This document shows positions 4,591-55,920 of a stretch of 55,920 bases of DNA, piece by piece; the stretch's first letter is position 1; each line of letters starts with the position of its first letter. The DNA is from a virus (taxonomy: Duplodnaviria > Caudoviricetes). Made by a program: the position numbers and the translations under genes. The DNA lies in IMG/VR virus record IMGVR_UViG_3300003324_000282, positions 1-55,920 of that record, one strand, 5' to 3'. Below the pieces are notes generated by a model. It searched no databases and was not told the origin of the DNA. It saw only the letters and a list, made by a program, of their open reading frames with translations.

Positions 4591-5486
4591 TGAAAAGTAC
4601 TTGGACTGAACGAGCCAAGGCAATTTCTTTTGATCCATCTGGTTTGGTAGTTGTCAAAGGCATCAACGTTCAAACAGCTTTGGAAGAACTTGATAACTAT
4701 GTATCCAGCCTTGCGGGGGGTGGAGGTGATCCAGGATCTCCGGGTGCTGACGGTGAATCAGCATATCAGATCTGGCTTGACCTTGGTAACACTGGGACTG
4801 AAGCAGATTTTATTGCTTCTTTAACAGGTCCTGAAGGTGAATCGGCATATCAGGTCTGGTTAGATCTAGGCAACACGGGGACTGAAGCAGATTTTATTGC
4901 TTCACTTCGGGGACCAGCGGGTACTGATGGAACAAATGGTGTTGATGGTACCGATGGGGCGTCAGCTTATCAGATTTGGTTGGGTCTTGGTAACACAGGA
5001 ACTGAAGCAGATTTTATTGCTTCTTTAACAGGTCCTGCTGGTGTTGACGGAGCAGATGGAGGCATTGAGATTGCTGCGGCAATTATTAACGCCAACTATG
5101 TGCCTACAAATGCACAAGCAGATGTTCCTGGTGCGCAATTAGTAGTTCCTGCCAATAGCGGTCCATTTGAACTTGAAGTTCTTGGTGGTGTATACGGCGG
5201 TATTACTACAGGAACCCAACCAGCTAATACTGTTATTCAAATTCAATTACAGTTTGTTGATGAGGCAAATACCATTGTTGCATTCTCAGCAGCAGCCACA
5301 ATTGCAACCGGTACATCTTATTCTACAGTAGTTACTATTCCAATCGCACAATCTTTTGGAAATTTTACCACCGATAAGACTTATCGTCTGCAAGCTCGTA
5401 TGACAGCTCTGGCAAATGGTGCCAGTAGTGTACTTAACTTTGGCGGTATCTTCCCTGCACGTACAATGCGGGCAGTTCGGCGATGA
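4590..5486 (+). CDS. Collagen-like/repeat fibre protein
   Basis: Three GESAYQ(I/V)WL.LGNTGTEADFIASL.GP modules separated by G-x-x triplets; beta-rich C-terminal domain. Confidence 0.7.
   Translation: MKSTWTERAKAISFDPSGLVVVKGINVQTALEELDNYVSSLAGGGGDPGSPGADGESAYQIWLDLGNTGTEADFIASLTGPEGESAYQVWLDLGNTGTEADFIASLRGPAGTDGTNGVDGTDGASAYQIWLGLGNTGTEADFIASLTGPAGVDGADGGIEIAAAIINANYVPTNAQADVPGAQLVVPANSGPFELEVLGGVYGGITTGTQPANTVIQIQLQFVDEANTIVAFSAAATIATGTSYSTVVTIPIAQSFGNFTTDKTYRLQARMTALANGASSVLNFGGIFPARTMRAVRR
4752..5040 (+). repeat. Three copies of an ~84-bp coding repeat
   Basis: Core ACTGAAGCAGATTTTATTGCTTC is identical in three copies (~4797, ~4881, ~5001). Confidence 0.85.
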
Positions 5487-6263: not shown

Positions 6264-6665
6264 ATGTCCGACCTTCAACATTTTGGAATTAAAGGTATGC
6301 ATTGGGGTGTTCGCCGCCAACGTGCAGCCGATGGAAAAGTTAGGGGTCCTTCTAAATCTACACGAGAAGGTGTCTCTTCCGATGCAGCAAGAGCTCATGA
6401 AGCTAGAGCAAAAGTAAAATCTCATGGATTAGATTCTTTGTCTAATCAAGATCTTCAACATTTAGTTAGTCGTATGAATCTCGAACAACAATATTCTAGA
6501 TTAACTAGTGATAAAACAAATGTTGCTAAAGTAAAGAAGGGCCGTAACGCTATTAAAGAAGTTATTGGCGTTGCCATTATGGCCAAGCAGGTTCATGAGA
6601 TTGTCAACAGTCCTATGGTTAAGGACATTAAAGTTGCCGTGGGTAAAACTAAAAAGGGCGGATAA
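6264..6665 (+). CDS. Small basic protein with N-terminal HFGIKGMHWGVRR motif
   Basis: RBS TAAGGAGG before ATG 6264; motif shared with 8913, 9286 and the RNAP N-terminus. Confidence 0.8.
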   Translation: MSDLQHFGIKGMHWGVRRQRAADGKVRGPSKSTREGVSSDAARAHEARAKVKSHGLDSLSNQDLQHLVSRMNLEQQYSRLTSDKTNVAKVKKGRNAIKEVIGVAIMAKQVHEIVNSPMVKDIKVAVGKTKKGG

Positions 6666-6679: not shown

Positions 6680-7153
6680 ATGGATCCAGCCGATGCGTCT
6701 GCAAGTGATGGTGTTATGCTTGCTTTCCTTCCTACCAATAGCGATTGGTCAAGAGTAGATATTCCGCATATGACTTTGGTTTATGCTGGGACAGTAGATA
6801 CCTTCTCGCCGACTGATCTAAATAATCTTGCCAAAGATGCAGCGTCTTTAGCTTTATTAGCAAGTCCATTCTACTTAACAGTAAGAGGTGTAGTCAAGCT
6901 AGGACCAGATGATGATCCAGTTCAGGCGCTGTCTTTTCAAGCTACACCAGATCTTTGGGCTATGCGTAAGTTTGTGGAAAAGTGGAACAAGAGTGAGTTT
7001 CCATTCAATCCACATGCAACCATTGGACCATACAATGCCATGTCGACGTATGTAGAATCTGTACCTCGTTCAGTATACTTCGATCGCCTTTACCTTGGTT
7101 ATGGAGATGAAGGACTTACATTTAATCTTCGTCGAGGTAATGGATCATATTAA
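6680..7153 (+). CDS. 2H phosphoesterase (Acb1/LigT-like)
   Basis: Two HxT motifs, PHMTL and PHATI, about 80 aa apart; RBS GAGGAGG. Confidence 0.8.
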   Translation: MDPADASASDGVMLAFLPTNSDWSRVDIPHMTLVYAGTVDTFSPTDLNNLAKDAASLALLASPFYLTVRGVVKLGPDDDPVQALSFQATPDLWAMRKFVEKWNKSEFPFNPHATIGPYNAMSTYVESVPRSVYFDRLYLGYGDEGLTFNLRRGNGSY

Positions 7154-7170: not shown

Positions 7171-8916
7171 ATGGCGCTGTCAAACAGAGCTACTCCGTAT
7201 TATTACGGTCAGTTCCGTGATGCGGTTATTCGTGGAGAGATTCCAGTAAATCGTGAAGTCTCTATGGAGATGAACCGTATTGATGCGCTCATTGCCAATC
7301 CAAACATCTATTACGATGATATGGCTGTAGAAGGATTTATTCTTTATTGTGAGAATGAGCTTACTCTTACTGATGGTTCAGATCTTCATTTACTTCCTAG
7401 TTTTAAAGTATGGGCTGAACAGATCTTTTGTTGGTATTATTTCGTAACTCGAAGTGTATATGAACCATCAAAAGACAATCATGGTGGACGTTATGTAACG
7501 AAGACAATTAAGATGCGTTTAACAACCAAGCAATACCTTATTGTGGCTCGAGGTGCTGCTAAGTCAATGTATGCTGAATGCATTCAGTCGTATTTCTTGA
7601 ATGTAGATACAGCAACAACACATCAGATTACAACCGCGCCTACCATGAAACAAGCCGAAGAAGTAATGCAGCCATTTCGAACTGCTATTACCAGAGCTCG
7701 TGGCCCGTTGTTCAAGTTCCTTACTGAAGGATCGATGCAAAACACTACTGGATCTAAAGCCAATAGAGTTAAACTTGCATCGACAAAGAAAGGTATTGAA
7801 AACTTTCTTACTGGTTCTTTGCTTGAGATTCGCCCAATGACAGTGAATAAACTTCAGGGTCTTCGTCCAAAGGTTTCTACTATTGACGAATGGTTGTCTG
7901 GCGACATTAGAGAAGATGTTGTTGGTGCAATTGAGCAGGGTGCATCTAAACTTGACGACTATTTGATTGTTGCTATCAGCTCAGAAGGTACTGTTCGAAA
8001 TGGTTCTGGCGATACCATCAAAATGGAACTAGCTGACATTCTTAAAGGTGAGTATGTAGCACCACACATTTCTATCTGGCATTACAAATTAGATGAGCTG
8101 GAAGAAGTCGGCGATCCGGCAATGTGGCCAAAGGCTAATCCGAATCTTGGCGCCACTGTTACGTATGAAACGTATCATCTGGACGTGGAACGGGCGGAAA
8201 AAGCCCCCGCTTCGCGGAATGACATTCTTGCCAAACGATTCGGAATTCCGATGGAAGGTTATACTTACTTCTTTACTTATGAAGAAACTCTTACTCATCG
8301 TCGGCAAGATCCTCGAGGAATGCCTTGTTCACTTGGCGCTGACCTTTCCCAAGGTGACGACTTCTGCGCTTTTACTTTCTTGTTTCCATTGCGTAATGAG
8401 AGATTTGCAATCAAAACTAGAAGTTACATTACTTCTTTGACTTTGATGAAACTTCCTGGTGCTATGCGTCAGAAGTATGACGAGTTTATCAAAGAAGGTA
8501 GTCTTCATGTTTTGGACGGAACTGTTCTTGATATGATGGAGGTGTATGACGATCTCGATGCATTCATCATTGCAGAAGAATACGATGTTCGAACACTTGG
8601 GTATGACCCATACAACGCCAAAGAGTTTGTTACTCGATGGGAAGCAGAGAATGGTCCTTTTGGCATCGAGAAAGTCATTCAGGGTGCTAAGACCGAAACG
8701 GTCCCGCTTGGTGAGCTGAAGAATTTAAGTGAGGAAAGACTTCTCCTTTTTGATCAGGAGCTCATGTCGTTTGCTATGGGTAACGCCATTACTATTGAGG
8801 ACACCAACGGTAACAGAAAACTTCTTAAGAGACGACAAGAAGAGAAGATCGACAACGTTGCTGCCTTGATGGATGCATACGTTGCCTACAAAGCAAACAA
8901 GGAGGCATTTGAATGA
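7171..8916 (+). CDS. terL: Terminase large subunit
   Basis: ARGAAKS Walker A, IDEW Walker B, KANPNLG, GADLS..DD nuclease, KIDNVAALMDA C-terminus. Confidence 0.95.
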   Translation: MALSNRATPYYYGQFRDAVIRGEIPVNREVSMEMNRIDALIANPNIYYDDMAVEGFILYCENELTLTDGSDLHLLPSFKVWAEQIFCWYYFVTRSVYEPSKDNHGGRYVTKTIKMRLTTKQYLIVARGAAKSMYAECIQSYFLNVDTATTHQITTAPTMKQAEEVMQPFRTAITRARGPLFKFLTEGSMQNTTGSKANRVKLASTKKGIENFLTGSLLEIRPMTVNKLQGLRPKVSTIDEWLSGDIREDVVGAIEQGASKLDDYLIVAISSEGTVRNGSGDTIKMELADILKGEYVAPHISIWHYKLDELEEVGDPAMWPKANPNLGATVTYETYHLDVERAEKAPASRNDILAKRFGIPMEGYTYFFTYEETLTHRRQDPRGMPCSLGADLSQGDDFCAFTFLFPLRNERFAIKTRSYITSLTLMKLPGAMRQKYDEFIKEGSLHVLDGTVLDMMEVYDDLDAFIIAEEYDVRTLGYDPYNAKEFVTRWEAENGPFGIEKVIQGAKTETVPLGELKNLSEERLLLFDQELMSFAMGNAITIEDTNGNRKLLKRRQEEKIDNVAALMDAYVAYKANKEAFE

Positions 8917-9275
8917 TTGATGAAAAGCCTTCTTTTGAGCATCATGGTGTTAAAGGTATGCATTGGGGTGTTCGAACTCGTACTCAGTCTTCATATGGTG
9001 AAGCTAAAGCCAGAGAAAAGGAACGTGTAGCATCACTTAAACCTAGTCGTGTAATTTCAAGAAAGATTTCTGAAGTTACCGGCGATCCACGGTCAGCTGT
9101 TACTTTTGCTTCTGTTGCTGCTGTAGGAGTTGCATTTACTCAATCACCTCAAGCTAAAGCAGCAATGAAAATTTCTATGTCGAATGTTGGTAAAGCTGCT
9201 GGCAATAGAAACGTACAGCGAATTACGTTCAAAGCATTGAAGGGCGCTGGTAAACTTTACATGAAGACTAGGTGA
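8913..9275 (+). CDS. Small basic protein with N-terminal HHGVKGMHWGVR motif
   Basis: ATGA overlap with terminase; shared motif. Confidence 0.8.
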   Translation: MIDEKPSFEHHGVKGMHWGVRTRTQSSYGEAKAREKERVASLKPSRVISRKISEVTGDPRSAVTFASVAAVGVAFTQSPQAKAAMKISMSNVGKAAGNRNVQRITFKALKGAGKLYMKTR

Positions 9276-9285: not shown

Positions 9286-9690
9286 ATGTTATATGAAGAG
9301 AAACCAACTTTAAACAATGCTATGATTCACTACGGTGTTCTCGGCATGAAGTGGGGTGTAACTCGTCAACAAGCTAGAGGTGGCGATATTCGTGCAGCAC
9401 GAGCAAGACTTGTTTTAGAAAGACAAAAAGTAAAACAAGCTAAACGAAAAGTAAGTGAAGCTAGTACTGCTAAAGATAAAGCTGCTGCAGCTCAGAAACA
9501 TGTTGATTTAAAAATGGGTTTATTAAACAATTCGGACAGAGTTATTGCTTCACGTCTGACTACTGGGGAGAAAGTAGCAACTGCACTTTTGTTTAGTCCT
9601 GTCGGTGCCGCCGCACTGATCGGTACTACATCTGCTACATCTCGACGAATTGAATATAAACAAGACAAAGGCAAGTATACTAAGACGTAG
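9286..9690 (+). CDS. Small basic protein with N-terminal HYGVLGMKWGV motif
   Basis: RBS GAGGAGG; shared motif; coiled coil and hydrophobic C-terminal segment. Confidence 0.8.
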   Translation: MLYEEKPTLNNAMIHYGVLGMKWGVTRQQARGGDIRAARARLVLERQKVKQAKRKVSEASTAKDKAAAAQKHVDLKMGLLNNSDRVIASRLTTGEKVATALLFSPVGAAALIGTTSATSRRIEYKQDKGKYTKT

Positions 9691-9720: not shown

Positions 9721-10989
9721 GTGTCAACAATCGGGTCTAGATTGAAGCACGCTTGGAACGCTTTTACCAATCAAGAGAGTTCACTTCAGTCATATGGCGA
9801 TGCGGTTTCATATGGTCGTCCGGACAGAACTCGACTTAGGATTCCAAATGAACGTTCTATCATCTCCTCTATTTATACGCGTCTTAGTATTGACGTTGCT
9901 GGTGTCGATATTCGTCATGTGCGCGTCGATGATAGCGGTCGGTTTAGTGGTGACATTGATAGTGGACTTAATAATTGTCTTACTGTTGAGGCTAATTTGG
10001 ATCAAGCGGCTCGAGCTTTTAGACAAGATCTTGCGCTAACGTTATTTGATAATGGTGCCGCGGCTATTGTACCGGTCGATACATCGTTAAATCCGCTTGT
10101 GACTGGTGGATACGATATTTTGAGTCTTCGTGTTGGTGAAATTATTCAATATATGCCTCGACATGTAAAATTGAATGTTTACAATGAAGCCATTGGTCGA
10201 CGTGAGCAAATTGTGCTTGAGAAAAAGTTTGTCGCGATTGTTGAGAATCCGCTATATTCTGTAATGAATGAACCGAACTCAACTCTTCAGCGCCTTATTC
10301 GAAAGCTAAATCTTCTAGACACGATTGATGATCAGTCTGGTTCTGGAAAACTCGATCTCATTATTCAGCTTCCATATGTAATCAAATCTGAATCAAGACG
10401 ACAGCAAGCCGAACAACGTCGTCAGGATATTGAGTTCCAGTTGTCTGGAAGTAAGTACGGCGTTGCTTATACAGATGGTACAGAAAAGATCACCCAGCTT
10501 AATCGACCTGTTGAAAATAATCTATTAAAACAGGTAGAGTATCTGGTCGAGATGTTGTATGGTCAACTTGGCCTTACGCCAGAAATTATGAACGGCACGG
10601 CCGACGAGAAGGCCATGCTGAACTACAACAGTCGTACGATCGAACCAATTCTAGATGCCATTGTTGAAGCAATGCGCCGTACATTTCTTACAAAGACTGC
10701 TCGTTCACAAGGTCAGACTATTGCATATTTCCGCAATGCATTTAAGCTTATTCCACTTAGTGAGATCGCTGAGATTGCTGATGTCTTTGCTCGGAATGAA
10801 ATCGCTACTTCCAACGAAATCAGACAAATTCTTGGATGGAAGCCTCATGATGACCCAAAGGCAGATCAACTTCGGAATAGCAATATGCCACAACCAGGGG
10901 ATAGTCCTCCGACAGATCCATTGGCAAAATTGAAAGAAATTAATAATTTAAAGCGAAGTATTCCGTCCCCGTCGGGGTCGGTTGAATAA
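9721..10989 (+). CDS. Portal protein
   Basis: 422 aa between terminase and capsid; HK97-like portal features (QLGL.PEI.NGTA, TIEPIL.AI, SNEIR..LG). Confidence 0.9.
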   Translation: MSTIGSRLKHAWNAFTNQESSLQSYGDAVSYGRPDRTRLRIPNERSIISSIYTRLSIDVAGVDIRHVRVDDSGRFSGDIDSGLNNCLTVEANLDQAARAFRQDLALTLFDNGAAAIVPVDTSLNPLVTGGYDILSLRVGEIIQYMPRHVKLNVYNEAIGRREQIVLEKKFVAIVENPLYSVMNEPNSTLQRLIRKLNLLDTIDDQSGSGKLDLIIQLPYVIKSESRRQQAEQRRQDIEFQLSGSKYGVAYTDGTEKITQLNRPVENNLLKQVEYLVEMLYGQLGLTPEIMNGTADEKAMLNYNSRTIEPILDAIVEAMRRTFLTKTARSQGQTIAYFRNAFKLIPLSEIAEIADVFARNEIATSNEIRQILGWKPHDDPKADQLRNSNMPQPGDSPPTDPLAKLKEINNLKRSIPSPSGSVE

Positions 10990-11014
10990 AACAGATACGG
11001 AAGGAGACAGTCCA

Positions 11015-13075
11015 GTGGAACCGGATTTCAGCGGTTACGCAACTAAGGCTGGTCTCAAGTGCTCCGACGGCCGGACAATTATGCCTGAGGCATTCAAAGA
11101 GATGGACGGAAAAACCGTTCCGCTCGTCTGGCAACACGGGCACAAGGACCCTTCAAATGTTCTTGGCCATGCCGTTCTCGAAGCTCGTAGTGATGGTGTT
11201 TATGCTCACGCGTTCTTCAATGATACTGAGCCGGCAAAACAGGCTAAGGCGCTTGTTGAGCACAAGGACATTACGTCTTTGTCTATTTATGCTAACAGTC
11301 TTGTTGAAAAGGGCAAAAAGGTATTTCACGGTGTTATTCGTGAGCTTAGTTTGGTTCTTTCCGGTGCCAATCCTGGTGCAGTGATTGACAATATTCGTAT
11401 TGCTCACAGCGATGACCCAGATGACATCGAGACGTTGGATGATGAAGCGATCATTTATACTGGTCTCGATCTCGTGCATTCTGATGAGGGTGCTGAAGCT
11501 GAGAAGAATGCTGATGGCGGGAAGAATGAAGAGAACGCTGAAGGCGGGAACAATGAAGAGAACGCTGAAGGCGGGAAGAATGAAGAGAACGCTGAAGGTG
11601 AAGAAAACGAAGATAATGCTGACAATGAAGAAGTTCAGCATGCTGCAACTAATGACAAAACCGTTCAGGATGTCTTTGATTCCTTTACAGCAGAGCAAAA
11701 GAAAGTTGTTCATTACCTGATCGGAGCCGCTCTCGAAGAAGCTGGCTCCACTGCAGAGCACTCCGACATGGAAGGACAGGAAAACATGGGAACGCGCAAC
11801 GTTTTCGAGCGAGATGGGAATGGCGGCGGTAGCACCGAGACGCATGAGCTGTCGCACGATGCCATCGCAGGGATTGTGGCAGACGCAAAGCGTCGCGGAT
11901 CTCTGAAAGCAGCTGTTGAAGACTATGCAATTCAGCACGGTATCGAGAACATTGACGTTCTTTTCCCGGATGCCAAGAACCTTGATGACGTTCCTGAGTG
12001 GGAGAAGCGTCGTACTGAGTGGGTTGCTGGTGTTTTGAACACTACTCGGCACACCCCATTCTCTCGGATTAGGACTCGTTCTGCTGATCTTACTCACGAA
12101 GAGGCTCGTGCCAAAGGTTACATCAAGGGTAATCTTAAGAAGGAAGAATTCTTCGGTGTTACAAAGCGTACTACCACTCCGACTACGATCTACAAGAAGC
12201 AGCAGCTTGATCGCGATGACATGCTCGACATTACAGACTTTGATGTCGTTGTCTGGCTCAAGGGTGAAATGCGTCTTATGCTCGAAGAGGAAATTGCTCG
12301 GGCTATTCTGATTGGTGACGGTCGAGACGTTGCTCACGAAGACAAGATCAAGGATCCGATGGGTGCTGCTGAAGGTGCTGGTATTCGTTCAATTCTGTAC
12401 GACCACGAGCTTTATGTGACGCATGTGAATGTTGGGCTGCCGGCTACCAATGCAGATTACAACGATGTCGTGGAAGCTGTCATGCGCGCACGTCGTTTCT
12501 ACAAGGGTACTGGTATGCCGAACTTCTACACGACAACTCAGACTTCGGTCGAGATGTTGCTGTCGAAGGACCAGTTTGGACGTCGTCGTTGGAACAGTAA
12601 GGAAGAGTTGGCTAACGCGCTGGGTGTTGGTCAGGTTATCGACGTTGAGGTCATGGACCAAGAGCCGGATCTGCTTGGCATCATTGTCAACCTTGCAGAC
12701 TACTCGGTTGGTACTGACCGTGGTGGCGACATCACCATGTTCGATGACTTTGATATCGACTACAACCAGTACAAGTACTTGATCGAGACTCGTCTGTCTG
12801 GTGCTCTTACCAAGATCAAATCTGCTATGGTTGTTCACCGTCAGGCTGTTGGTGACGTTCAGGTTACGCCGACTGCTCCGGACTTTGACGGCACGACAAT
12901 CACTATTCCGACGGATGCCAATGTCGACTACTTCGCTGATGGCTCACCGGTTGCTGACGCAGCCACGGTTCCGGTTCCGGCTGGAACCACAGTGGAGATC
13001 ACGGCTACTCCGACAGCTGGACACTTCTTCGCTACTAACGAAGAGGACCAGTGGAGCTTCACTAACAACGCCTGA
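11015..13075 (+). CDS. Prohead protease-scaffold-major capsid fusion with C-terminal Ig-like domain
   Basis: FSGYA, VPLVWQH, LSIYA, ELSLVLSGANPGA of HK97-family protease; acidic linker; HK97-fold capsid region; RBS AAGGAG before GTG 11015. Confidence 0.9.
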   Translation: MEPDFSGYATKAGLKCSDGRTIMPEAFKEMDGKTVPLVWQHGHKDPSNVLGHAVLEARSDGVYAHAFFNDTEPAKQAKALVEHKDITSLSIYANSLVEKGKKVFHGVIRELSLVLSGANPGAVIDNIRIAHSDDPDDIETLDDEAIIYTGLDLVHSDEGAEAEKNADGGKNEENAEGGNNEENAEGGKNEENAEGEENEDNADNEEVQHAATNDKTVQDVFDSFTAEQKKVVHYLIGAALEEAGSTAEHSDMEGQENMGTRNVFERDGNGGGSTETHELSHDAIAGIVADAKRRGSLKAAVEDYAIQHGIENIDVLFPDAKNLDDVPEWEKRRTEWVAGVLNTTRHTPFSRIRTRSADLTHEEARAKGYIKGNLKKEEFFGVTKRTTTPTTIYKKQQLDRDDMLDITDFDVVVWLKGEMRLMLEEEIARAILIGDGRDVAHEDKIKDPMGAAEGAGIRSILYDHELYVTHVNVGLPATNADYNDVVEAVMRARRFYKGTGMPNFYTTTQTSVEMLLSKDQFGRRRWNSKEELANALGVGQVIDVEVMDQEPDLLGIIVNLADYSVGTDRGGDITMFDDFDIDYNQYKYLIETRLSGALTKIKSAMVVHRQAVGDVQVTPTAPDFDGTTITIPTDANVDYFADGSPVADAATVPVPAGTTVEITATPTAGHFFATNEEDQWSFTNNA
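11504..11599 (+). repeat. 27-bp tandem repeat (~3.5 copies) encoding NAEGGKNEE
   Basis: GGCGGGAA(G/C)AATGAAGAGAACGCTGAA repeated in the acidic linker. Confidence 0.9.
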
Positions 13076-18872: not shown

Positions 18873-21800
18873 GCAGCATTGATGAGAGAGTTGTTGAAGC
18901 TAAGTTTGATAATTCTCAGTTTCAACGCAACATCAAATCTACTCAAGATAGCTTGGATAATTTCAAGAAAAGCTTGAACATGGATGGTGCCACCAGAGGC
19001 ATATCGGGATTAGCTTCTGCTGCGTCTACTGTAGCTAACCGTTTCAACGTCATGCGGGTTGCAGCATACACCGCAGTGGCTACAATTGCGCATCAACTTA
19101 CCATTGCTGGCGAAAATCTGGTTAGATCGTTTACTGTTGGACCACTTATCGATGGTCTACATGAGTATGAAACTCAGCTTAATTCAGTTCAGACGATTCT
19201 TGCTAATACTCAGTGGGAACATAAAAATCTTGATGATGTTAACAAGGCTCTCAATGAGCTGAATCATTACTCGGATAAAACGATTTACAACTTCACCGAG
19301 ATGGCTCGAAACATTGGTACATTCACCGCGGCTGGCGTTGGTCTGGATAAGTCAGTAGCATCTATTAAGGGCATTGCAAACCTTGCTGCTGTTTCTGGTT
19401 CTAATTCTCAGCAAGCGTCCACCGCAATGTACCAGCTTTCTCAAGCTATCTCATCTGGTACCGTTAAGTTGATGGACTGGAATTCAGTTGTCAATGCTGG
19501 CATGGGTGGTAAGGTTTTCCAAGATTCACTTAAAGAGACCGCTCGAGTACATGGTGTCAAAATTGATGAGATGATCAAGAAGGAGGGTAGTTTCCGTAAT
19601 ACTCTCCAGAACGGATGGCTTACATCAAAGATTCTAACTGAGACGCTTAGTAAGTTCACCGGCGATCTGTCTCGCAGTCAGCTCAAGCAGATGGGTTATA
19701 CTGAGAAGCAAATCGACGGCATCATTAAGATGGGTAAGACGGCAACCGATGCCGCTACCAAGGTCAAGACCTTTACCCAGCTTATGGGGACGCTTAGAGA
19801 AGCTGCTGGCTCCGGTTGGGCCAAGACCTGGCAACTTATTATTGGTAACTTCAATCAGGCAAAGCATGTCTGGACTGATGTTTCAAATGTTCTTGGTGGC
19901 ATGATTCAGTCTTCAGCCAAGGCACGAAATAACATGCTTAAAGATTGGGCTGCACTTGGCGGCCGTAAAGCCTTGATTGATGGCATCTCCAATGCTTTTC
20001 ATGCTTTGATGTCGGTGTTGGATCCAATTAGAGATGCATTTCGAGAGATCTTCCCTAGGACAACTGGTGCTCAGCTTGCTGAGATGACAAAGAGCTTCCG
20101 CGATCTGATGGAAAACTTCAAAATAGGAGCAGATACTGCGGACAAGCTTAAGCGTACCTTTGCTGGTGTATTTGCAGTATTTGACATTGGTTGGCAGGTT
20201 ATCAAAGCTGTTGCACATTTCATTGGAGAACTTATCGGTGCCTTCGCAAAAAGCTCCGGAGGACAAATCCTGGAATTCACCGGAAGTATTGGTGATATGC
20301 TTGTTGCATTGGACAATGCTATCAAGAAAGGTCAAGGTCTTACCAAATTCTTTGATGGTTTGGCAAACATGCTTAAACCAATCGTTGCAACATTGGGTAT
20401 TACTAGAATTGCATTAGTTGACATTTTTACTGGTGTGGCAACAGGTGTCAATCAAGCTGCCGGTATTATTCCACGTTTTCTTCATACTCTTGGTAACATG
20501 ATCGATAAGATTCGTGAGTTCTTTAACGGTATGTTCCAAGGTGTGGACTTCGACAATGTCTTGAATCTTTTAAATGCTGGACTATTCACTGGCGTTCTGC
20601 TATTGATACGTAAATTTATCAATCACCTGACTCGAGATAAAGGTCCAGGTCTGATTGAACGTGTTATCAATCGAATTACTCAGCCATTTGAAGATTTAAC
20701 CGCGACACTTCAGAAGATGCAGGCAGCATTACAGGTTGCCACACTTATTCAACTAGCTATTGCAGTTGGTGTTCTTACTGCATCAGTCTTTACACTGTCA
20801 AAGATCAATGCCAAGGATCTATCTAAGTCACTTGCTGCTATTGGCGGTATGTTCGCTGAACTTATGGGCGCTCTATTCTTGTTCAACAAGGTTGGTGGCG
20901 CTAAAGGTCTGTTCACAACCGCTAGTGGTCTTATTCTACTGGCAACCGCTATTAGAGTGCTGGTATCTTCAGTCAAGGCATTATCTGAACTCAGTTGGGG
21001 TCAACTGGCTAAGGGTATTACTGGAGTAACTGCTCTGATCGGTGGATTGATTCTAGCAACTAGGGGTATCGGTAGTAATGCTGCAGGCATGATTCGTGCT
21101 GGTGCCGGACTTATCCTTTTGTCCACAGCGATCAAGGTTCTTGTCAGTGCAGTATCTGACATGGCTGAACTTAGCTGGGGTCAGATGGCTAAGGGTCTGA
21201 CCGGTGTAGCAGCAATGTTGACTGCTCTTGCGTTATTTACCAAGTTTGGTGACACTAATGCCGGTGGGATTTTGCAGGGTGCTGGATTAATTCTCCTTGC
21301 TACTGGAATTAAAGTCTTAGCGAGCGCTGCAACTGACTTTGCCAAACTTAGCTGGGGTCAGATGGCTAAGGGTCTTACTAGTATCTCTGCAATTCTAGTT
21401 GCGTTCAGCTTATTCTCTAAAACTGTGGGTAATCCAGTTTCTTTGGTTGCATCAGGTGCAGCTTTGGTAATGATTTCTGGCTCTATGGTTGTGTTGGCCA
21501 AGGCTATGGATCTATTTTCCAGGTTGGGCTGGGGTCAGATGACTAAGGGTCTGGTCTCAATGGCTGGTGCACTTGCCATTATTACTGTTGCTCTGAATGC
21601 AATGCCTATTACTTCTGCACTTTCTGCTGCTGCATTAGTTGGTATTTCTGTTGCTTTAACTGTGCTTGCGGGTGCACTGAAGGTAATGGGTGATATGAGT
21701 TGGGAGTCTATTGCTAAGGGTTTGATTACTCTTGCTGGCGCTCTTGTTATTATCGCACAAGCGATGCTCGAGATGGAGTTCGCTCTCCCAGGTGCTGCTG

Positions 21801-28915: not shown

Positions 28916-28947
28916 TCGCAGGTAATACATCTCATATAATGAGACCC
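28916..28947 (+). promoter_or_regulatory. Phage promoter motif P1
   Basis: TCGCA-ggtaa-TAC-atctca-TATAAT-GAGACCC. Confidence 0.8.
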
Positions 28948-28963
28948 TAAAGAAGGAGAACAC

Positions 28964-29265: not shown

Positions 29266-29325
29266 GCTCGAAAGCGTAGAAGCTGTGTAAGAACAAATTA
29301 CATGGCTTCTACGTTTTCGGGTTTT
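29266..29325 (+). terminator. Intrinsic terminator (25-bp stem with G-U pairs)
   Basis: GCTCGAAAGCGTAGAAGCTGTGTAA / TTACATGGCTTCTACGTTTTCGGGT followed by T-run. Confidence 0.8.
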
Positions 29326-29351: not shown

Positions 29352-29382
29352 TCGCAAAAGATACTTGGGCTTTAATGAAACC
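29352..29382 (+). promoter_or_regulatory. Phage promoter motif P2
   Basis: TCGCA-aaaga-TAC-ttgggc-TTTAAT-GAAACC. Confidence 0.7.
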
Positions 29383-29486
29383 AAACTACACCCAAACCGC
29401 AAGACCCCCTCCATACCGCGGAACCGCACTTCCCGGCTGCCTTGTGTACCTAACCCTCCGCCCACCAGGATTAGGTTTTTGTTTTT
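29377..29486 (+). ncRNA. Candidate C-rich small RNA
   Basis: Between P2 and terminator ACCTAACCCT..AGGATTAGGT-TTTTGTTTTT; no RBS; two CCCTCC motifs. Confidence 0.5.
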
Positions 29487-29522: not shown

Positions 29523-29555
29523 TCGCAAAATTTACGTGGCTTATAACGAGACCCC
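29523..29555 (+). promoter_or_regulatory. Phage promoter motif P3
   Basis: TCGCA-aaatt-TAC-gtggct-TATAAC-GAGACCCC. Confidence 0.8.
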
Positions 29556-29769: not shown

Positions 29770-29801
29770 AAGCTCAGAGTCCCACACGGACTTTGAGTTT
29801 T
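29770..29801 (+). terminator. Intrinsic terminator
   Basis: GCTCAGAGTCC-cacac-GGACTTTGAGT-TTT. Confidence 0.8.
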
Positions 29802-29833
29802 CGCAGATTTTACATCTCTTATAATGAGACCCC
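29801..29833 (+). promoter_or_regulatory. Phage promoter motif P4
   Basis: TCGCA-gattt-TAC-atctct-TATAAT-GAGACCCC. Confidence 0.8.
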
Positions 29834-30068: not shown

Positions 30069-30076
30069 CTCTCACA

Positions 30077-30114
30077 AGACTAGGACCCCTAACACGGGTT
30101 CTAGTTTTTTCTTT
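30077..30114 (+). terminator. Intrinsic terminator
   Basis: GACTAGGACCC-ctaacac-GGGTTCTAGTT-TTTT. Confidence 0.8.
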
Positions 30115-30115: not shown

Positions 30116-30148
30116 TCGCATTTTTTACACTCATTATAACGAGACCCC
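30116..30148 (+). promoter_or_regulatory. Phage promoter motif P5
   Basis: TCGCA-ttttt-TAC-actcat-TATAAC-GAGACCCC. Confidence 0.8.
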
Positions 30149-30433: not shown

Positions 30434-30476
30434 AAAGGCTAAGTACCCTTACAAGGTACTTGGTCTTTGTGTTTTT
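30434..30476 (+). terminator. Intrinsic terminator
   Basis: AAAGGCTAAGTACC-cttacaa-GGTACTTGGTCTTT-GTGTTTTT. Confidence 0.75.
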
Positions 30477-30560: not shown

Positions 30561-30633
30561 GCCCTACTAGCCCAATGGCAGAGGCAGAAGACTTAAAATC
30601 TTCCAAGTGTGGGTTCGAGTCCCACGTAGGGCA
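30561..30633 (+). tRNA. tRNA-Leu (anticodon TAA), short variable loop, CCA not encoded
   Basis: Acceptor GCCCTAC/GTAGGGC, D loop with TGG, anticodon arm GAAGA-CTTAAAA-TCTTC, T arm GTGGG-TTCGAGT-CCCAC, discriminator A. Confidence 0.9.
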
Positions 30634-30636
30634 CAA

Positions 30637-30669
30637 TCGCAAAAATTGCACGGCTTATAATGAGACCCC
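30637..30669 (+). promoter_or_regulatory. Phage promoter motif P6
   Basis: TCGCA-aaaat-TGC-acggct-TATAAT-GAGACCCC. Confidence 0.8.
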
Positions 30670-30888: not shown

Positions 30889-30925
30889 AAGCCTAGAGCC
30901 CTGCAAGGGTTTTAGGTTTTTCTTT
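30889..30925 (+). terminator. Intrinsic terminator
   Basis: AAGCCTAGAGCCC-tgcaa-GGGTTTTAGGTTT-TTCTTT. Confidence 0.8.
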
Positions 30926-31042: not shown

Positions 31043-31073
31043 TCGCATAAATTACATGGATCTTAATGAGAAG
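31043..31073 (+). promoter_or_regulatory. Phage promoter motif P7
   Basis: TCGCA-taaat-TAC-atggat-CTTAAT-GAGAAG. Confidence 0.7.
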
Positions 31074-31136
31074 AGACTTCATGTCTGTCCGAACCCTTGA
31101 ACGGGATACGGTTAACTTCTCCTATCTTTTTATTTT
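31068..31136 (+). ncRNA. Candidate small three-way-junction RNA or structured leader
   Basis: GAGAAG/CTTCTC closing stem, AGAC/GTCT and CCG..CCC/GGG..CGG hairpins, then T-rich tail; no ORF. Confidence 0.5.
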
Positions 31137-32498: not shown

Positions 32499-32531
32499 TC
32501 GCATAAAATACATGGGTCATAATGAGACCCC
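32499..32531 (+). promoter_or_regulatory. Phage promoter motif P8
   Basis: TCGCA-taaaa-TAC-atgggt-CATAAT-GAGACCCC. Confidence 0.8.
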
Positions 32532-32744: not shown

Positions 32745-32792
32745 AAGAGCAAGAGCTTTGTAGCAATACAAGGTTCTTGTTCTTTGCCTTTT
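32745..32792 (+). terminator. Intrinsic terminator (GNRA loop)
   Basis: AAGAGCAAGAGCTTTGTA-gcaa-TACAAGGTTCTTGTTCTT. Confidence 0.75.
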
Positions 32793-43274: not shown

Positions 43275-43346
43275 AGGTTTGTGGGGACCACGCTTTGGTG
43301 GGTGCGTGGCTTAAACGACCGACTATATCTCCGGCGCCCACAACCT
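43275..43346 (+). ncRNA. Three-way-junction RNA motif, copy 2
   Basis: AGGTTTGTGGG/CCCACAACCT; CCACGC/GCGTGG; TTAAA; CG-A-CCG..CGG-CG. Confidence 0.55.
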
Positions 43347-43378
43347 CGCAAGATATACAGGGGTTATTATGAGACCCC
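43346..43378 (+). promoter_or_regulatory. Phage promoter motif P9
   Basis: TCGCA-agata-TAC-aggggt-TATTAT-GAGACCCC. Confidence 0.8.
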
Positions 43379-43581: not shown

Positions 43582-43586
43582 TCTCG

Positions 43587-43620
43587 AAAGCCAGAGGCCC
43601 TTACAAGGCTTCTGGTTTTT
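43587..43620 (+). terminator. Intrinsic terminator
   Basis: AAAGCCAGAGGCC-cttacaa-GGCTTCTGGTTTT-T. Confidence 0.8.
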
Positions 43621-52229: not shown

Positions 52230-52728
52230 GTATCACTGGATCAACTATAGTGAGGAAAAATTAGAGCGTGTCTTTGTTGCACATGAAGCTGCTCGTCGAG
52301 GCAGTGATTTACATAATCTTGCACATGAAGCAATTCGACTTGGTGTTAAGCTTGCAGGTAGAAATACACTAGGCTTGTATGTTAATGATGCTATTGGTTA
52401 TCGTATGACCTGTGAACAAGTTTTATATTTTTCACCAAATGCGTTTGGAACCGCGGATACTATTTCTTTCCGTCGTAACAAGCTTAGGATTCATGATTTG
52501 AAAACTGGGGTCTATCCATGTTCTGAACATCAGCTTGAGGTTTATGCTGCTCTGTTCTGTCTTGAATACGGATTCAAACCAGCTAACATTGAGATTGAAC
52601 TTCGTATTTACCAGTCTGACGAAGCTCGTATTTATGAGGCTGACCCAGACATTATTACACACATCATGGATAGAATTATAACGTTTGACAAGAAGATCAA
52701 CGAACTTAGATTGGAGGCGATGTCATGA
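52171..52728 (+). CDS. Cas4/RecB-like PD-(D/E)XK exonuclease
   Basis: HAFLSPS..W, G..LH, FGTAD, IHDLKTG, QL.VYA. Confidence 0.8.
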   Translation: MNFNKHLDLVDQHAFLSPSKYHWINYSEEKLERVFVAHEAARRGSDLHNLAHEAIRLGVKLAGRNTLGLYVNDAIGYRMTCEQVLYFSPNAFGTADTISFRRNKLRIHDLKTGVYPCSEHQLEVYAALFCLEYGFKPANIEIELRIYQSDEARIYEADPDIITHIMDRIITFDKKINELRLEAMS

Positions 52729-55415
52729 TTCTAGAAGGCGAAGACGCACTCCAGCACTATGGTATTCTCCGCAAGTCAGGTAGGTATCCTTGGGGTTCTG
52801 GTGAAGACCCGGTTCAAAGAAGTAACACGTTTTTGGGTATGGTTGCCGACCTACGTGAAAAAGGACTCACCCCAAAAGAGATTGCTGTTGGGTTAGGTTT
52901 AGAGAACACTACCAATCTTCGTAATGTTACAACTATTGCTCGGGCTGAGAAGAAAGCCGCCGATGTCAGTATAGCTATTCGGTTGAAAGAAAAAGGCATG
53001 TCCAATATTGCCATTGGTAAACAAATGGGCGTTGGTGAATCTCAGGTTCGTGCATTGTTGAAAGCACATGAAGACGATAACTTGCATATTCTCAAAGCCA
53101 CTACAGAAGTTATCAAAAAACGTTGTGATGAAGTTAAGTACCTTGACGTTGGTACAGGTCAACAATATCATGTACCTACTGGTGTCAGTGAAAACAAATT
53201 CAAAGCTGCAATTGCTGCGCTTGAAGATCAAGGCTACAAAGTTCATTATCTTAAAGTTCCTCAATTGGGAACCACACATGAAACAACACATAAAGTCCTA
53301 GCACCACCAGGTGTACCATATTCTGAAGTCAGTAAGAATCGTGATAACATTCGTGGTTTTACTGAATGGACCAATGATGGTGGTAGGTCTTGGTTGGGCA
53401 TTGATCCACCAATTTCTATTAGTTCAAAGCGTCTTGGTATTCGATACAAAGAAGAAGGCGGCGCAGAAGCAGATGGTGTCATCTATGTTCGACCCGGTGT
53501 AAGAGACATTTCACTAGGTCGATCCCGTTATGCTCAGGTGCGTATTCAAATTGATGATACGCATTACATCAAGGGCATGGCAATGTACAAGGATGATCTT
53601 CCATCTGGAACCGACCTTCTTTTCAATACGAATAAGTCGAACACTGGAAATAAATTAGATGCTTTGAAGCCACTGAAGAATGATCCTGACAACCCATTTG
53701 GATCTACTGTTCGTCAGCTTAAAGATGAAAATAAAAAAGTATACTCGGCAATGAATATTGTTTATGAAGAAGGTACCTGGGAGCGTTGGTCTAATAAGTT
53801 GTCTTCACAGTTCCTATCCAAGCAAACTCCGGATCTGGTTAAGAAGCGGCTTGACCTAACGTTTGAAAAGAAGAAGTCTGAGCTAGATGAAATCATGAAG
53901 TTGACAAACCCCGCAGTTAGAAAGCATCTTCTATTCAAGTTTGCTGAAGAGGCCGATTCTTCTGCGGTTCATCTCAAGGCGGCTGGGTTCAAACGTTCTG
54001 CTGCACATGTTATCTTACCTATTACTTCTATGAAAGAAACAGAAATCTATGCACCTAACTTCAAGAATGGTGAACGAGTAGTTCTTATTCGTCATCCGCA
54101 TGCAGGTGTATTTGAGATTCCAGAACTAACTGTTAATAACCGTCATCCAGAAGCTAGAAAACTTCTTGGTCCTACCAAGGATCGTCCTGAGCCGGTTCGA
54201 GATGCAGTAGGCATTCATCCCAAGGTTGCACAACATCTTTCTGGTGCAGACTTTGATGGTGATACGGTTCTGGTAATTCCAAACAATGATAGAAGAATTA
54301 AGAACTCTCCACCATTAGCTGGGTTAAAAGACTTTGATCCGCAGATATACAAGATTCCTGATGACAGTCCAATACCCAGAATTAAACCAAAGACAAAGCA
54401 ACTACAAATGGGTGATGTTTCAAATTTGATCACCGATATGACTATCAAAGGAGCACCCCCATCCGAGCTTGCTCGAGCAGTTCGGCATTCTATGGTAGTT
54501 ATCGATGCTGAGAAACATCATCTAAACTATAAGCAATCAGCCATTGATAATGGTATTTCTCAACTTAAGAAGCGGTATCAAACAGATGCTGCTGGTAACC
54601 CTTCTTCTCGAGCTGGTGCTTCAACTTTAATTTCTAGAGCTAAGAGTCGTAAAGAAGTACCAGAGAGAAAACAAGGGTTTAAGATTAATCCTGAAACTGG
54701 TGCCAAAGAGTATCGTTATACTGGTGCAACTAAGATAGATGCAAAAGGTAGGGTTGTCCCTCGTACAACCAGGTCTACTAAGATGGCTGAAACTAATGAT
54801 GCCCGTACTCTGTTGTCTAAGGGTGGTGGTACAAAGGTAGAGCACATCTATGCAGACTATGCTAATAGACTTAAGACTATGGCTAATGATACGAGGAAAG
54901 AGTACATCAATACAAAGCCTACGCCATATGATAGTTCAGCAAGAACTGCCTACTCAAAAGAGGTGGCCTCTCTTAACGCAAAGCTCCACCTGGCTTTAAG
55001 AAACAGCCCCCTTGAAAGACAAGCCCAGGTCCTAGGAAACCGGGTCTATAAACAAAAGCTCAATGACCAACCAGACATGGATGAGTCTGAGAAGAAGAAA
55101 GTAAAAGCTCAGGCTCTAATGGAAGCTAGAACTAGGGTTGGTGCACATAAAGAACAGATCAAGATTGATGAAAATGAGTGGGCTGCTATTCAAGCAGGTG
55201 CTTTCCATAACAACACTCTCACTAAGATTCTAGACAATGCAGATCTTGATACAGTGAGGAAGCTAGCTACACCTAAGGAAACAGTACTAATGACTAACTC
55301 CAAGACAGCTAGAGCACAGTCTATGCTTAAGGGTGGTGCCACACAGGCTGAGGTTGCTGAGGCTCTTGGTGTATCACTTAGTACTCTTAAGCGTAGTCTA
55401 GGTGGTGAAGGGTAA
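52725..55415 (+). CDS. Single-chain two-barrel DNA-dependent RNA polymerase (YonO-like) with terminal HTH domains
   Basis: DG.I..QVRI..KGM first-barrel motifs; LIRHPH and SGADFDGDTV (54249-54263 encode DFDGD); HTHs GMSNIAIGKQMGVGESQVR and GATQAEVAEALGVSLSTLKR. Confidence 0.8.
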   Translation: MILEGEDALQHYGILRKSGRYPWGSGEDPVQRSNTFLGMVADLREKGLTPKEIAVGLGLENTTNLRNVTTIARAEKKAADVSIAIRLKEKGMSNIAIGKQMGVGESQVRALLKAHEDDNLHILKATTEVIKKRCDEVKYLDVGTGQQYHVPTGVSENKFKAAIAALEDQGYKVHYLKVPQLGTTHETTHKVLAPPGVPYSEVSKNRDNIRGFTEWTNDGGRSWLGIDPPISISSKRLGIRYKEEGGAEADGVIYVRPGVRDISLGRSRYAQVRIQIDDTHYIKGMAMYKDDLPSGTDLLFNTNKSNTGNKLDALKPLKNDPDNPFGSTVRQLKDENKKVYSAMNIVYEEGTWERWSNKLSSQFLSKQTPDLVKKRLDLTFEKKKSELDEIMKLTNPAVRKHLLFKFAEEADSSAVHLKAAGFKRSAAHVILPITSMKETEIYAPNFKNGERVVLIRHPHAGVFEIPELTVNNRHPEARKLLGPTKDRPEPVRDAVGIHPKVAQHLSGADFDGDTVLVIPNNDRRIKNSPPLAGLKDFDPQIYKIPDDSPIPRIKPKTKQLQMGDVSNLITDMTIKGAPPSELARAVRHSMVVIDAEKHHLNYKQSAIDNGISQLKKRYQTDAAGNPSSRAGASTLISRAKSRKEVPERKQGFKINPETGAKEYRYTGATKIDAKGRVVPRTTRSTKMAETNDARTLLSKGGGTKVEHIYADYANRLKTMANDTRKEYINTKPTPYDSSARTAYSKEVASLNAKLHLALRNSPLERQAQVLGNRVYKQKLNDQPDMDESEKKKVKAQALMEARTRVGAHKEQIKIDENEWAAIQAGAFHNNTLTKILDNADLDTVRKLATPKETVLMTNSKTARAQSMLKGGATQAEVAEALGVSLSTLKRSLGGEG

Positions 55416-55684
55416 TGGATACAGTTGACTACATGCTTACTACTACTGACAATCCTTACAATCCTTTCACTGAATTTGATGAATGGAATGCATGGGACGA
55501 AGCACAGGGCTACTACACTACTGCTTACTTAGCAAGAATTACAAGAAGTTCTGATGAGATCTCAGAAGCTAATCAGGATGTAGCCATAGAGAATGCTATC
55601 GATGAGATTGTTAAAGAGAATATTCTTGGGATTTATCGTAAGGTAAGTGCAAAGGATTATACTACTACTGGTACGATAGAGTGA
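55415..55684 (+). CDS. Small acidic protein coupled to the RNAP gene
   Basis: TAATG overlap; MLTT.DNPYNPF..FDEW..D...GY.T..YLAR. Confidence 0.75.
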   Translation: MDTVDYMLTTTDNPYNPFTEFDEWNAWDEAQGYYTTAYLARITRSSDEISEANQDVAIENAIDEIVKENILGIYRKVSAKDYTTTGTIE

Positions 55685-55812
55685 TGGTTATGCTATCTCG
55701 TATTCTCACTAGTCTCTCTACACGTAAGTGTTACAGTTGTGATGATAAAAGTTTTCATACACATCATCTAACATGGGTAGGTAGGCATCGATACATTCTT
55801 AATAAATAAAAT

Positions 55813-55856
55813 AAATTTTAAAAAATAATTTTTATAAAATTTTAAAAAATAATTTT
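55813..55856. repeat. 20-bp direct repeat in an almost pure A/T tract
   Basis: AAATTTTAAAAAATAATTTT at 55813-55832 and 55837-55856. Confidence 0.8.
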
Positions 55857-55883
55857 CATTTTGAAAAAAATTTTTACGGTATC

Positions 55884-55920
55884 GGGGGAGGGGTCCGCGA
55901 TATTTACCCCCCCTTTGCAT
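55884..55920. other. Probable right genome terminus (cos-proximal G/C dyad)
   Basis: GGGGGAGGGGT..ACCCCCCC dyad followed by TTTGCAT at the window end, after an A/T tract. Confidence 0.55.

Follow-up and report, generated by a model that had tools for sequence, protein, structure and literature searches.

Closest described systems

Single-chain RNA polymerases built around two double-psi β-barrels have been described both in phages and in eukaryotes. The protein considered here is encoded at positions 52725–55415 (+ strand) of the virus record IMGVR_UViG_3300003324_000282 (Caudoviricetes), and its structural model indicates that it is such a polymerase, flanked by three helix-turn-helix (HTH) units. 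The window analysed is the whole virus record, 55,920 bp long, classed as linear and 94% complete, with a phage G+C content of 43%.

Among the phage enzymes, YonO of the Bacillus prophage SPβ is a single-chain two-barrel polymerase of ~100 kDa whose gene lies just before the late genes. It is DNA-dependent and transcribes the SPβ late genes from one start site, the promoter being undefined (PMC5467207). Thermus phage P23-45 encodes two polymerases, the tape-measure-fused virion enzyme gp96 and the non-virion gp64, each with its own promoter motif (PMC10770324). YonO, gp64 and gp96 are all DNA-dependent (PMC5467207, PMC10770324). The eukaryotic QDE-1 and RDR2 (PDB 2j7n, 7w82) use RNA templates in silencing and have no HTH modules. 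The virion RNA polymerases (RNAPs) φ14:2 gp66, N4 vRNAP and P23-45 gp96 comprise 2000–5000 residues, are encoded among structural genes and have been detected in particles.

The window protein has its best core match in QDE-1 and RDR2, with the same barrel order and metal loop at 12–14% identity. The Thermus phage proteins P23-45 gp64 and P74-26 gp62 (PDB 8f72, 8f5m) are likewise single-chain two-barrel, non-virion transcriptases; ~340 residues align with the window protein (model residues 226–724) at Z 14 and 16% identity. As is proposed for the window enzyme, gp64 reads its own conserved promoter motif, but its promoters are GC-rich. Moreover, gp64 is shorter, at ~600 residues, lacks HTH modules and does not occur in virions; its synthesis follows the action of the virion polymerase gp96 (PMC10770324). 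YonO, which uses one promoter for its late genes and is not known to carry HTHs, is likened to the window protein by description only. The likeness to the virion RNAPs lies in the proposed early-promoter role and, for gp66 and gp96, in the two-barrel core; the window enzyme differs in having 896 residues, in lying among recombination genes and in being known here from its sequence. Only rare relatives of ~1800 residues look like the virion-RNAP type.

The nearest system is the phage 1706/actinophage "HTH-RdRP" family (RdRP, RNA-dependent RNA polymerase). It shares with the window full-length homology, the HTH–core–HTH layout, the DxDGD loop and a gene position at the right end of the genome, with a small gene behind it. 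In 2010, PMC2919709 counted the "phage 1706" family among five YonO-like families and argued that these proteins are genuine polymerases. Koert et al. 2021 (bioRxiv 10.1101/842583) reported the same protein in Streptomyces cluster BI phages and in related phages of Arthrobacter, Gordonia, Rhodococcus, Microbacterium, Lactococcus and Faecalibacterium. In that work, the protein has HTHs at both ends, an HHpred match to the Pfam RdRP family (95.68%) and the DxDGD loop, and it is considered a polymerase candidate whose gene is a signature of the group. Polymerase activity having been predicted in both papers, the protein is of an already predicted kind. The window differs from the described family in that no cultured relative is more than 59% identical to its protein, and the printed work makes no link to a repeated promoter, an N-terminal motif or long fused forms.

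Fold, active site and DNA-binding modules

The polymerase open reading frame (ORF) is uninterrupted over 896 codons and carries the following features.

52725–55415, + strand: polymerase coding sequence (ORF, PHROG 4291, AlphaFold2 model, fold matches); 896 residues, 99.4 kDa, pI 9.6
52755–52802, + strand: N-terminal motif HYGILRKSGRYPWGSG, residues 11–26 (family alignment; predicted disordered)
52815–53072, + strand: two tandem N-terminal HTHs, residues ~31–75 and 80–116 (Pfam, PHROG, model)
53403–54920, + strand: two-barrel catalytic core, residues 227–732 (VIA-align structural matches)
53466–53582, + strand: β-like barrel motifs D250-G251, Q271.R273 and K283-G284 (invariant or at least 90% conserved)
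54087–54263, + strand: β′-like barrel motifs R456-H-P458 and metal loop D509-F-D511-G-D513 (R456, P458, D509, D511, G512 and D513 invariant in 126 of 126 sequences)
55296–55400, + strand: C-terminal HTH, residues 858–892 (Pfam HTH_24 and model helices)

The AlphaFold2 model, computed on the family alignment, has a mean predicted local distance difference test (pLDDT) score of 90.9 and a predicted template modelling (pTM) score of 0.83. In a Foldseek search against the PDB, QDE-1 ranked at the top (E 6.5e-10), followed by Thermus-phage P74-26 gp62 and "P32 gp64 RNA polymerase" (~1e-7) and, lower, by plant RDR2, the E. coli β′ subunit (3e-4) and P23-45 gp96 (1e-3). With VIA-align, QDE-1 (2j7n_A) could be superimposed on model residues 227–732 with Z 18.7 and a root-mean-square deviation of 4.3 Å over 379 residues. 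RDR2 gave Z 18.6, gp62 and gp64 gave 14.1 and 14.0, and Rpb1-type subunits gave ~10.6 over model residues 416–630. Matches in a library of predicted virus structures were proteins named RNA-dependent RNA polymerase and a P23-45 protein. In the model, the β-like barrel precedes the β′-like barrel within one chain. The single-chain two-barrel identity follows from the motifs together with the model matches to QDE-1, RDR2, gp62 and gp64 over residues 227–732, and the clade is the single-subunit one with QDE-1/RDR, YonO, crAss-like gp66 and Thermus-phage gp64/gp96. A sequence search of solved structures, run with the protein alone and with the family profile, returned only HTH-type matches and a weak one to gp96 (E 0.5). 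Above threshold, the Pfam families on the polymerase are HTHs only; the RdRP family (PF05183) scored 14.9 bits against a cut-off of 23.8, at residues 500–599 only.

The first-barrel motifs are EADGVIY (residues 248–254), AQVRIQ (270–275) and IKGMA (282–286), and those of the second barrel are IRHPHAG (455–461) and GADFDGD (507–513). Their conservation was assessed in an alignment of the query with 125 of 150 representatives among the matches listed, 43–54% identical to it; two 1800-residue forms, one fragment and others were left out. Throughout these 126 sequences, G251, Q271, R273, K283 and G284 are invariant in the first barrel, with D250 at 90% or more, as are R456, P458, G507, A508, D509, D511, G512 and D513 in the second. 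Section 8 of PMC2919709 (Ruprich-Robert & Thuriaux) gives eight residues common to all two-barrel polymerases; beyond the metal loop, those of QDE-1 are D709, R738, K743, R962 and P964. Indeed, D250, R273, K283, R456 and P458 correspond to them in order and with similar spacing.

The second N-terminal HTH is recognized by Pfam HTH_23 at residues 84–116 (34.8 bits, cut-off 24.6), and the C-terminal one by HTH_24 at residues 869–892 (23.4 bits, cut-off 21.9), where weak matches to sigma-70 region 4 occur also. The first N-terminal unit (~31–75) is backed by PHROG 6831 (residues 39–56) and by model helices. These helices span residues 31–45, 50–56, 62–89, 94–101 and 105–114 at the N-terminus, and 858–869, 874–881 and 885–892 at the C-terminus. 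An earlier note on this DNA, made from the sequence alone, had proposed a single-chain two-barrel RNAP with built-in HTHs. All the motifs it listed (RHPH, ADFDGD, DG/Q.R/KG, the HTHs and an N-terminal tag) were located in the 896-residue protein. The AlphaFold/Foldseek comparison it suggested agrees with its proposal: double-psi barrels are predicted, with QDE-1 as the best match (Z 18.7) and gp62/gp64 at Z 14.

Family and distribution

The protein matches PHROG 4291 ("RNA-dependent RNA polymerase") with E = 0 and 1263.8 bits, residues 4–894 aligning with positions 7–907 of the 909-position profile. A tblastn search found the polymerase in 250 cultured-phage records at 39–59% identity, 249 of them covering at least 80% of the query. 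By genus, there were 95 records for Arthrobacter, 55 for Gordonia, 54 for Streptomyces and 13 for Lactococcus, the remainder belonging to Curtobacterium, Microbacterium, Rhodococcus, Faecalibacterium and uncultured phages. No DNA nearly identical to the window was found among cultured phages. In 38 of the 40 matches listed, the homology ends less than 500 bp from the right end of the record; the corresponding distance in the window is 505 bp. Metagenomes are rich in relatives: a word-indexed search gave at least 7999 matches, and an exhaustive search of representatives at 50% identity gave 2212 clusters at E ≤ 1e-3, 873 of them at E ≤ 1e-30.

Product names in the same 40 matches were HTH DNA-binding protein (25), hypothetical protein (7), RNA-dependent RNA polymerase (5), DNA binding protein (2) and "transcription factor D5" (1). 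The expectation that automated pipelines would label the protein only as an HTH protein is accurate for most of these records (25 of 40) and for the source names in the metagenome search, but PHROG 4291 and 5 of the 40 name an RdRP. In the literature, Klyczek 2017 (PMC5513430) contains no mention of "promoter" or "RNA polymerase", and PMC13313380 added nothing on the polymerase. The survey of viral two-barrel polymerases in Supplementary Data 4 of PMC10770324 and the family lists cited there may already include the family. What goes beyond print is a set of new leads, namely the link between polymerase and promoter across host phyla, that between the N-terminal tag and DUF7211, and that between the long forms and head proteins.

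A repeated promoter-like element

The right arm of the window contains a 33-bp element, TCGCA-N5-TACA-N5-TATAAT-GAGACCCC, in which (T/A)ACA is allowed at the second block. A repeat and pattern search of the window revealed seven strong copies, every one of them on the + strand; 100 shuffles of the sequence gave none. A position weight matrix (PWM) built from these seven added two weak ones.

28916–28948, + strand: element copy 1, TCGCA-N5-TACA-N5-TATAAT-GAGACCC (pattern, 1 mismatch); ribosome-binding site (RBS) and ATG after it
29352–29387, + strand: weak copy (PWM scan, 13.7 bits)
29523–29555, + strand: copy 2 (pattern); RBS and ATG after it
29801–29833, + strand: copy 3 (pattern); RBS and ATG after it
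30116–30148, + strand: copy 4 (pattern); RBS and ATG after it
30637–30669, + strand: copy 5 (pattern); immediately 3′ of tRNA-Leu 30561–30634
31043–31078, + strand: weak copy (PWM scan, 17.7 bits)
32499–32531, + strand: copy 6 (pattern); RBS and ATG after it
43346–43378, + strand: copy 7, the last one 5′ of the polymerase gene, 9.4 kb away

The family of repeated promoters put forward in the earlier note is supported, in that the strong copies are repeated here and recur in relatives; its count of ten becomes seven strong and two weak copies. Each strong copy lies 12–25 nt ahead of an RBS and ATG. Upstream of the element there is no TTGACA-like hexamer at 16–18 bp and no TG extension, and generic sigma-70 matches are not enriched in the window (21 against 32.8 expected; 25 against 25.8). 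One such match just 5′ of the polymerase ATG (52685–52712) was rejected as chance, on the basis of the overall count of 25 against 25.8 in shuffles; its start site would fall inside the RBS.

Most of the short cassettes headed by the element are closed by a strong stem-loop and T-run; these terminators lie at 29271–29317, 30076–30108, 30434–30468, 30889–30919, 32745–32784 and 43586–43620. The last begins only 240 nt past copy 7, so that transcription of the ~9 kb to the polymerase needs read-through or an unseen promoter. Pattern and PWM scans found no copy within 1–28.9 kb, and the late genes therefore need another signal. The tRNA-Leu gene within the element cluster (30561–30634) has the anticodon TAA, and the next copy begins 3 nt later.

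The element recurs in cultured relatives. Streptomyces phage HotFries, whose polymerase is 59% identical, has 6 copies that end in ...TGAGACCCCTAC and start just after the holin gene; Gordonia phage Tanis has 11 copies and Arthrobacter phage Gordon 2, and a reversed control pattern gave 0. Lactococcus phage P078 (polymerase 39% identical) has ~10 copies of a variant, TTTTACA-TACCC-TATAATGA(A/G)AG, without a −35 box. Between positions 23000 and 45400 of P078, ~10 copies of TTTTACATACCCTATAATGA(A/G)AG were seen. Two 105-nt units of that phage, at 23617 and 28302, are 95% identical; in neither is the element immediately followed by an obvious ORF, and these units may represent small RNAs. A scan of IMG/VR found at least 111 stretches with the element, many with 2–8 copies on one strand, although single matches may be chance. 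Among five IMG/VR contigs with at least three copies, four encode a full-length homologue of the polymerase (49–61% identity), and the fifth, 61% complete, has only a weak 66-residue match. A 50-bp motif with a TATAAT box was reported in five copies in a Gordonia cluster DJ phage (PMC9671010), in a genome announcement that does not mention the polymerase.

The N-terminal motif and DUF7211

Ahead of the first HTH, the polymerase carries a motif of the form L-x-HYG-x-x-R-x-SGRYPWGSG, located 5–42 residues from the start in members of the family. The N-terminal tag of the earlier note is thus real: it is present in all 126 aligned members, 122 with the strict pattern and four with Q or W in place of H, and its residues G13, S18, G19, R20 and G24 are invariant. 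In the model, pLDDT is below 50 at residues 1–4 and 9–23. The motif is thus conserved like the active site, yet it is not part of the fold. In Streptomyces phage HotFries, the motif begins at ~40580, ahead of the start deposited for gp56 (40664), and is therefore missing from the deposited protein; many deposited records of the family may be shortened at the N-terminus.

Translated in six frames, the window contains only four instances of the loose pattern H.G..WG, and all four are close to the N-terminus of an ORF on the + strand. Apart from the polymerase, the window encodes three small proteins with an N-terminal DUF7211 domain.

6264–6665, + strand: small protein with N-terminal DUF7211 (HFGIKGMHWG), 5′ of the LigT and TerL genes (Pfam PF23847, 37.5 bits, cut-off 27)
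8913–9275, + strand: small DUF7211 protein between TerL and the portal gene (Pfam PF23847, 33.8 bits)
9286–9690, + strand: small DUF7211 protein between TerL and the portal gene (Pfam PF23847, 34.9 bits)

All three begin with HxG(V/I)KGMxWG, and their neighbours are TerL (7171–8916) and the portal gene (9721–10989). In a six-frame search, all five relatives examined carried DUF7211 genes, without exception in the left arm, and the 14 control genomes carried none. Five such genes are present in Arthrobacter phage Gordon. With hhalign, the tag and the DUF7211 proteins could be aligned over 13 columns (acidic-L-x-HYG-[VIT]) with 93.9% probability and P 1.6e-7. Pfam DUF7211 scored below its cut-off of 27 bits at the N-terminus of the polymerase in two of five relatives (15.8 and 13.2 bits) and gave no match to the window polymerase at E ≤ 1. 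A hidden Markov model (HMM) of the tag was not significant on the three window DUF7211 proteins (E 1.3–2.6). PHROG profiles place DUF7211 inside longer proteins too. No paper mentioning DUF7211 was found in the literature, and an Atlas look-up of one DUF7211 protein returned no function. From sequence comparison, the N-terminal motif may act either as a packaging tag or as an initiation element.

Long and fused relatives

Among proteins of 1569–4480 residues, four match the polymerase at E ≤ 1e-10. Three of them (P0147, P0167 and P0271, ~1800 residues) have the polymerase core at the C-terminal end, are 57–80% identical to one another in their polymerase parts, and all lack the tag and the C-terminal HTH. 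In P0147 and P0167, the homology starts at about residue 120 of the window protein, so that both N-terminal HTHs are gone, and in P0271 it starts at residue 66. The three share the modules of an N-terminal extension of ~1050 residues. P0147 starts with a portal domain (Pfam 2.9e-29; PHROG 12, 2e-35). Within the extension, a conserved stretch of 319 residues is similar to mycobacteriophage L5 gp2-type proteins and to the middle of a "capsid maturation protease and ADP-ribosyltransferase" that is encoded directly behind the portal (~30% identity, E as low as 8e-12). An Atlas look-up of the extension gave "phage head morphogenesis protein" (0.92, 156 shared features), which serves as a lead only, and Pfam at E ≤ 1 added nothing firm. 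By these sequence matches, the long forms look like internal head proteins. They are known from protein sequences, each on a single contig, and a search of viral and metagenome contigs did not recover the DNA of P0271.

The fourth protein, the metagenomic P0272, joins polymerase residues 5–554 to a tape-measure-like protein. It is probably a chimera of assembly and was discounted; its layout is reminiscent of gp96, the virion polymerase of P23-45 with its tape-measure fusion, and a real fusion of that kind is possible. In two further metagenomic clusters (P0132 and P0142), a LigT-type 2H phosphoesterase is fused ahead of the tag, which thus becomes internal. The window itself has a LigT/2H-phosphoesterase-like gene at 6680–7150, between a DUF7211 gene and TerL.

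Gene neighbourhood and genome ends

The polymerase gene comes after genes for a VRR-NUC and a Cas4-like nuclease, and its ATG overlaps the stop codon of the latter in an ATGA junction. The Cas4-like gene matches the exonuclease family PHROG 3953 (E 8e-75). The gene therefore lies in an operon of recombination genes, outside the structural module, and is not fused to a structural protein. It is the last large gene ahead of the cohesive-end site (cos) and the late arm. In Lactococcus phage P078, an endolysin gene lies immediately 5′ of the polymerase gene, an order that hints at late expression of the polymerase. On the 3′ side, the window has one further gene.

55415–55684, + strand: 89-residue acidic protein after the polymerase (PHROG 4303, E 3e-37)

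Its motif is DNPYNPF..F..W..WD...GY.T.YLAR. A small gene comes directly 3′ of the polymerase gene in the window and likewise in all five relatives examined; in three of these it shares the motif DNP.NP..W..GY..YLAR. This acidic protein may be a cofactor of the polymerase.

An extremely A+T-rich tract followed by G/C runs spans 55790–55920 and 1–170 (GGGGGAGGGGTC...CCCCCCC..TGCAT at the right end, CCCGAAAA..CCGGGGGG at the left). Both ends resemble the cohesive ends of cultured relatives, and the contig appears to represent a cos-ended genome almost exactly, lacking ~9–14 nt at the right end. A 697-residue protein (10982–13075) matches the full-length head maturation protease family PHROG 3270 (E 6e-232), with Pfam Peptidase_S78 at residues 15–102 only. 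No separate major capsid gene was seen in the window, and 10982–13075 may be a protease–capsid fusion as in relatives. Tandem repeats of 84–180 nt lie at 4743–5059 and 20921–21552, inside the tail-fibre-like and tape-measure genes.

Proposed mechanism and alternatives

The reading we favour, at a probability of roughly 0.6, is that the protein is a DNA-dependent transcriptase whose HTHs stand in for a sigma factor and which reads the 33-bp promoter of the phage. To the statement that the polymerase and the nearly constant promoter belong together across host phyla we give the same weight; indeed, all the element-bearing cultured phages (HotFries, Tanis, Gordon and P078) encode the polymerase, at 39–59% identity. 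According to this mechanism, the three HTH units would take the place of the sigma factor and recognize the whole element. The spacing of the two upstream blocks, close to one turn of the helix, would fit the two N-terminal HTHs in tandem, and melting and RNA start would fall at TATAAT/GAGACCCC. In the right arm (28.9–43.4 kb), the promoters would stand at the front of the replication genes and of the short cassettes bounded by terminators. The first polymerase might be delivered from the capsid through the disordered N-terminal motif, which we rate somewhat short of an even chance; alternatively, the host polymerase might start weakly at the TATAAT box.

Several points weigh against this reading. 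The element holds a perfect sigma-70 −10 hexamer, and actinobacterial polymerases can use −10-only promoters. The strict pattern gave a doubtful single match in Curtobacterium phage Pippin15 and one in the oral phage D_HF4_2. The equivalence of the catalytic residues to those of QDE-1, drawn from sequence, rests on order and spacing. A literature search returned no biochemical or experimental study of the PHROG 4291 family, whether of RNA synthesis or of promoter binding. The only paper that describes the element reads it as a host sigma-70 promoter (PMC9671010). Finally, YonO uses one promoter for the late genes, located directly 3′ of the YonO region (PMC5467207). The window polymerase gene, which the late arm follows directly on the circular map, has a similar position.

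The main rival, which we consider unlikely, is a YonO-like, non-virion late polymerase. Here, host sigma-A would read TATAAT so that the right arm, including the polymerase gene, is expressed, and the phage enzyme would then transcribe the left (structural and lysis) arm from an unrecognized promoter near the genome ends. YonO is itself non-virion and serves a late operon from one promoter (PMC5467207); the position of the gene as the last large one before cos and the late arm, its translational coupling to a recombination nuclease gene, the consensus −10 box and the absence of the element from 1–28.9 kb all fit. So does the structural comparison, in which the best phage matches are the non-virion gp62 and gp64 (Z 14) and the virion gp96 is weaker (Foldseek E 1e-3). 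However, the end regions of the window, HotFries, Gordon, P078, Pippin15, D_HF4_2 and Tanis gave no conserved late-promoter candidate and share only cos-like G/C tracts and an RBS region. Blocks foreign to sigma (TACA five bases 5′ of TATAAT; GAGA after it) are kept in phages of both Actinobacteria and Lactococcus, and even the Lactococcus phage has no −35 box. At the far end of the scale, an RNA-dependent RNA polymerase, or a DNA-binding regulator with an inactive core, is very improbable. The best structural matches are the eukaryotic RNA interference polymerases, the Pfam RdRP score is sub-threshold (14.9 against 23.8 bits), and PHROG and GenBank product names point the same way. Against this, the catalytic residues are invariant across 126 diverse members, and the core is therefore under selection; all characterized phage members of the clade copy DNA (PMC5467207, PMC10770324); QDE-1 also uses DNA templates (PMC9508822); and three DNA-binding HTHs surround the core.

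The favoured transcriptase could also be carried in the particle. The earlier note had called it "probably virion-packaged" and "host-independent"; neither claim is supported as stated, and the indirect evidence cuts both ways. Virion packaging as such is a tentative proposition that falls a little under even odds. Slightly less probable is the complete scheme, in which the tag brings the polymerase into the capsid, the enzyme enters the cell together with the DNA, and its own promoters are then used with no need for the host polymerase. The most specific version, a capsid-delivered, sigma-independent 99-kDa RNAP loaded into the head by its DUF7211-like motif and guided by its HTHs to a portable 33-bp promoter, with early transcription independent of host factors, is more doubtful again. 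The scheme would account for the placement of the promoters, which head the first right-arm genes and of which the last is 9.4 kb upstream of the polymerase gene, for a tag that is invariant yet disordered, and for the match of the first half of this tag to DUF7211 (hhalign and, below threshold, Pfam on two of five relatives), whose genes stand beside TerL and portal in the window and all five relatives and in none of the 14 controls. The tag-less 1800-residue relatives with a head-protein-like extension, one beginning with a portal domain, and the endolysin gene directly 5′ of the P078 polymerase gene point in the same direction, and precedents exist in N4, φ14:2 gp66 and P23-45 gp96 (PMC10770324). 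On the other hand, the DUF7211 match covers 13 columns, the tag HMM on the window DUF7211 proteins and Pfam DUF7211 on the window polymerase gave nothing significant, and DUF7211 also occurs inside longer proteins. The tag is internal in the LigT–polymerase fusions, and the long forms lose HTHs too, so that the tag may belong to promoter recognition; each of these forms comes from one contig, and the fourth looks chimeric. Furthermore, the gene belongs to a recombination operon and not to the structural module, the phage enzymes closest in structure are non-virion ones, and the perfect TATAAT box could let the host enzyme start. The other role for the motif, rather unlikely in our estimate and below the YonO-like alternative, is that of an initiation element: an aromatic (H/Y/Y/W) finger, ordered on DNA, would melt TATAAT or position the first nucleotides. 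In favour of this role, the motif is conserved to the same degree as the catalytic residues, the apo model shows it as disordered, P0147 and P0167 have lost it along with the N-terminal HTHs, and an internal position is tolerated in the LigT fusions. An initiation role, however, leaves unexplained why the acidic-L-x-HYG-[VI] half occurs in small proteins of the terminase/portal module.

Significance

The polymerase family is a signature gene of a phage lineage that infects Actinobacteria and Firmicutes. If the polymerase is not packaged, it would be one more YonO-type phage polymerase, of routine interest. If it is packaged, it would be by far the smallest virion RNA polymerase known and the first virion RNAP in ordinary siphoviruses of Gram-positive bacteria, and DUF7211 would gain a function. 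The pairing of polymerase and element would constitute a minimal transcription system with its own DNA-reading HTHs, which is directly testable. A portable polymerase–promoter pair, if true, would explain how one lineage spans Actinobacteria and Firmicutes with a G+C content far from that of its hosts.

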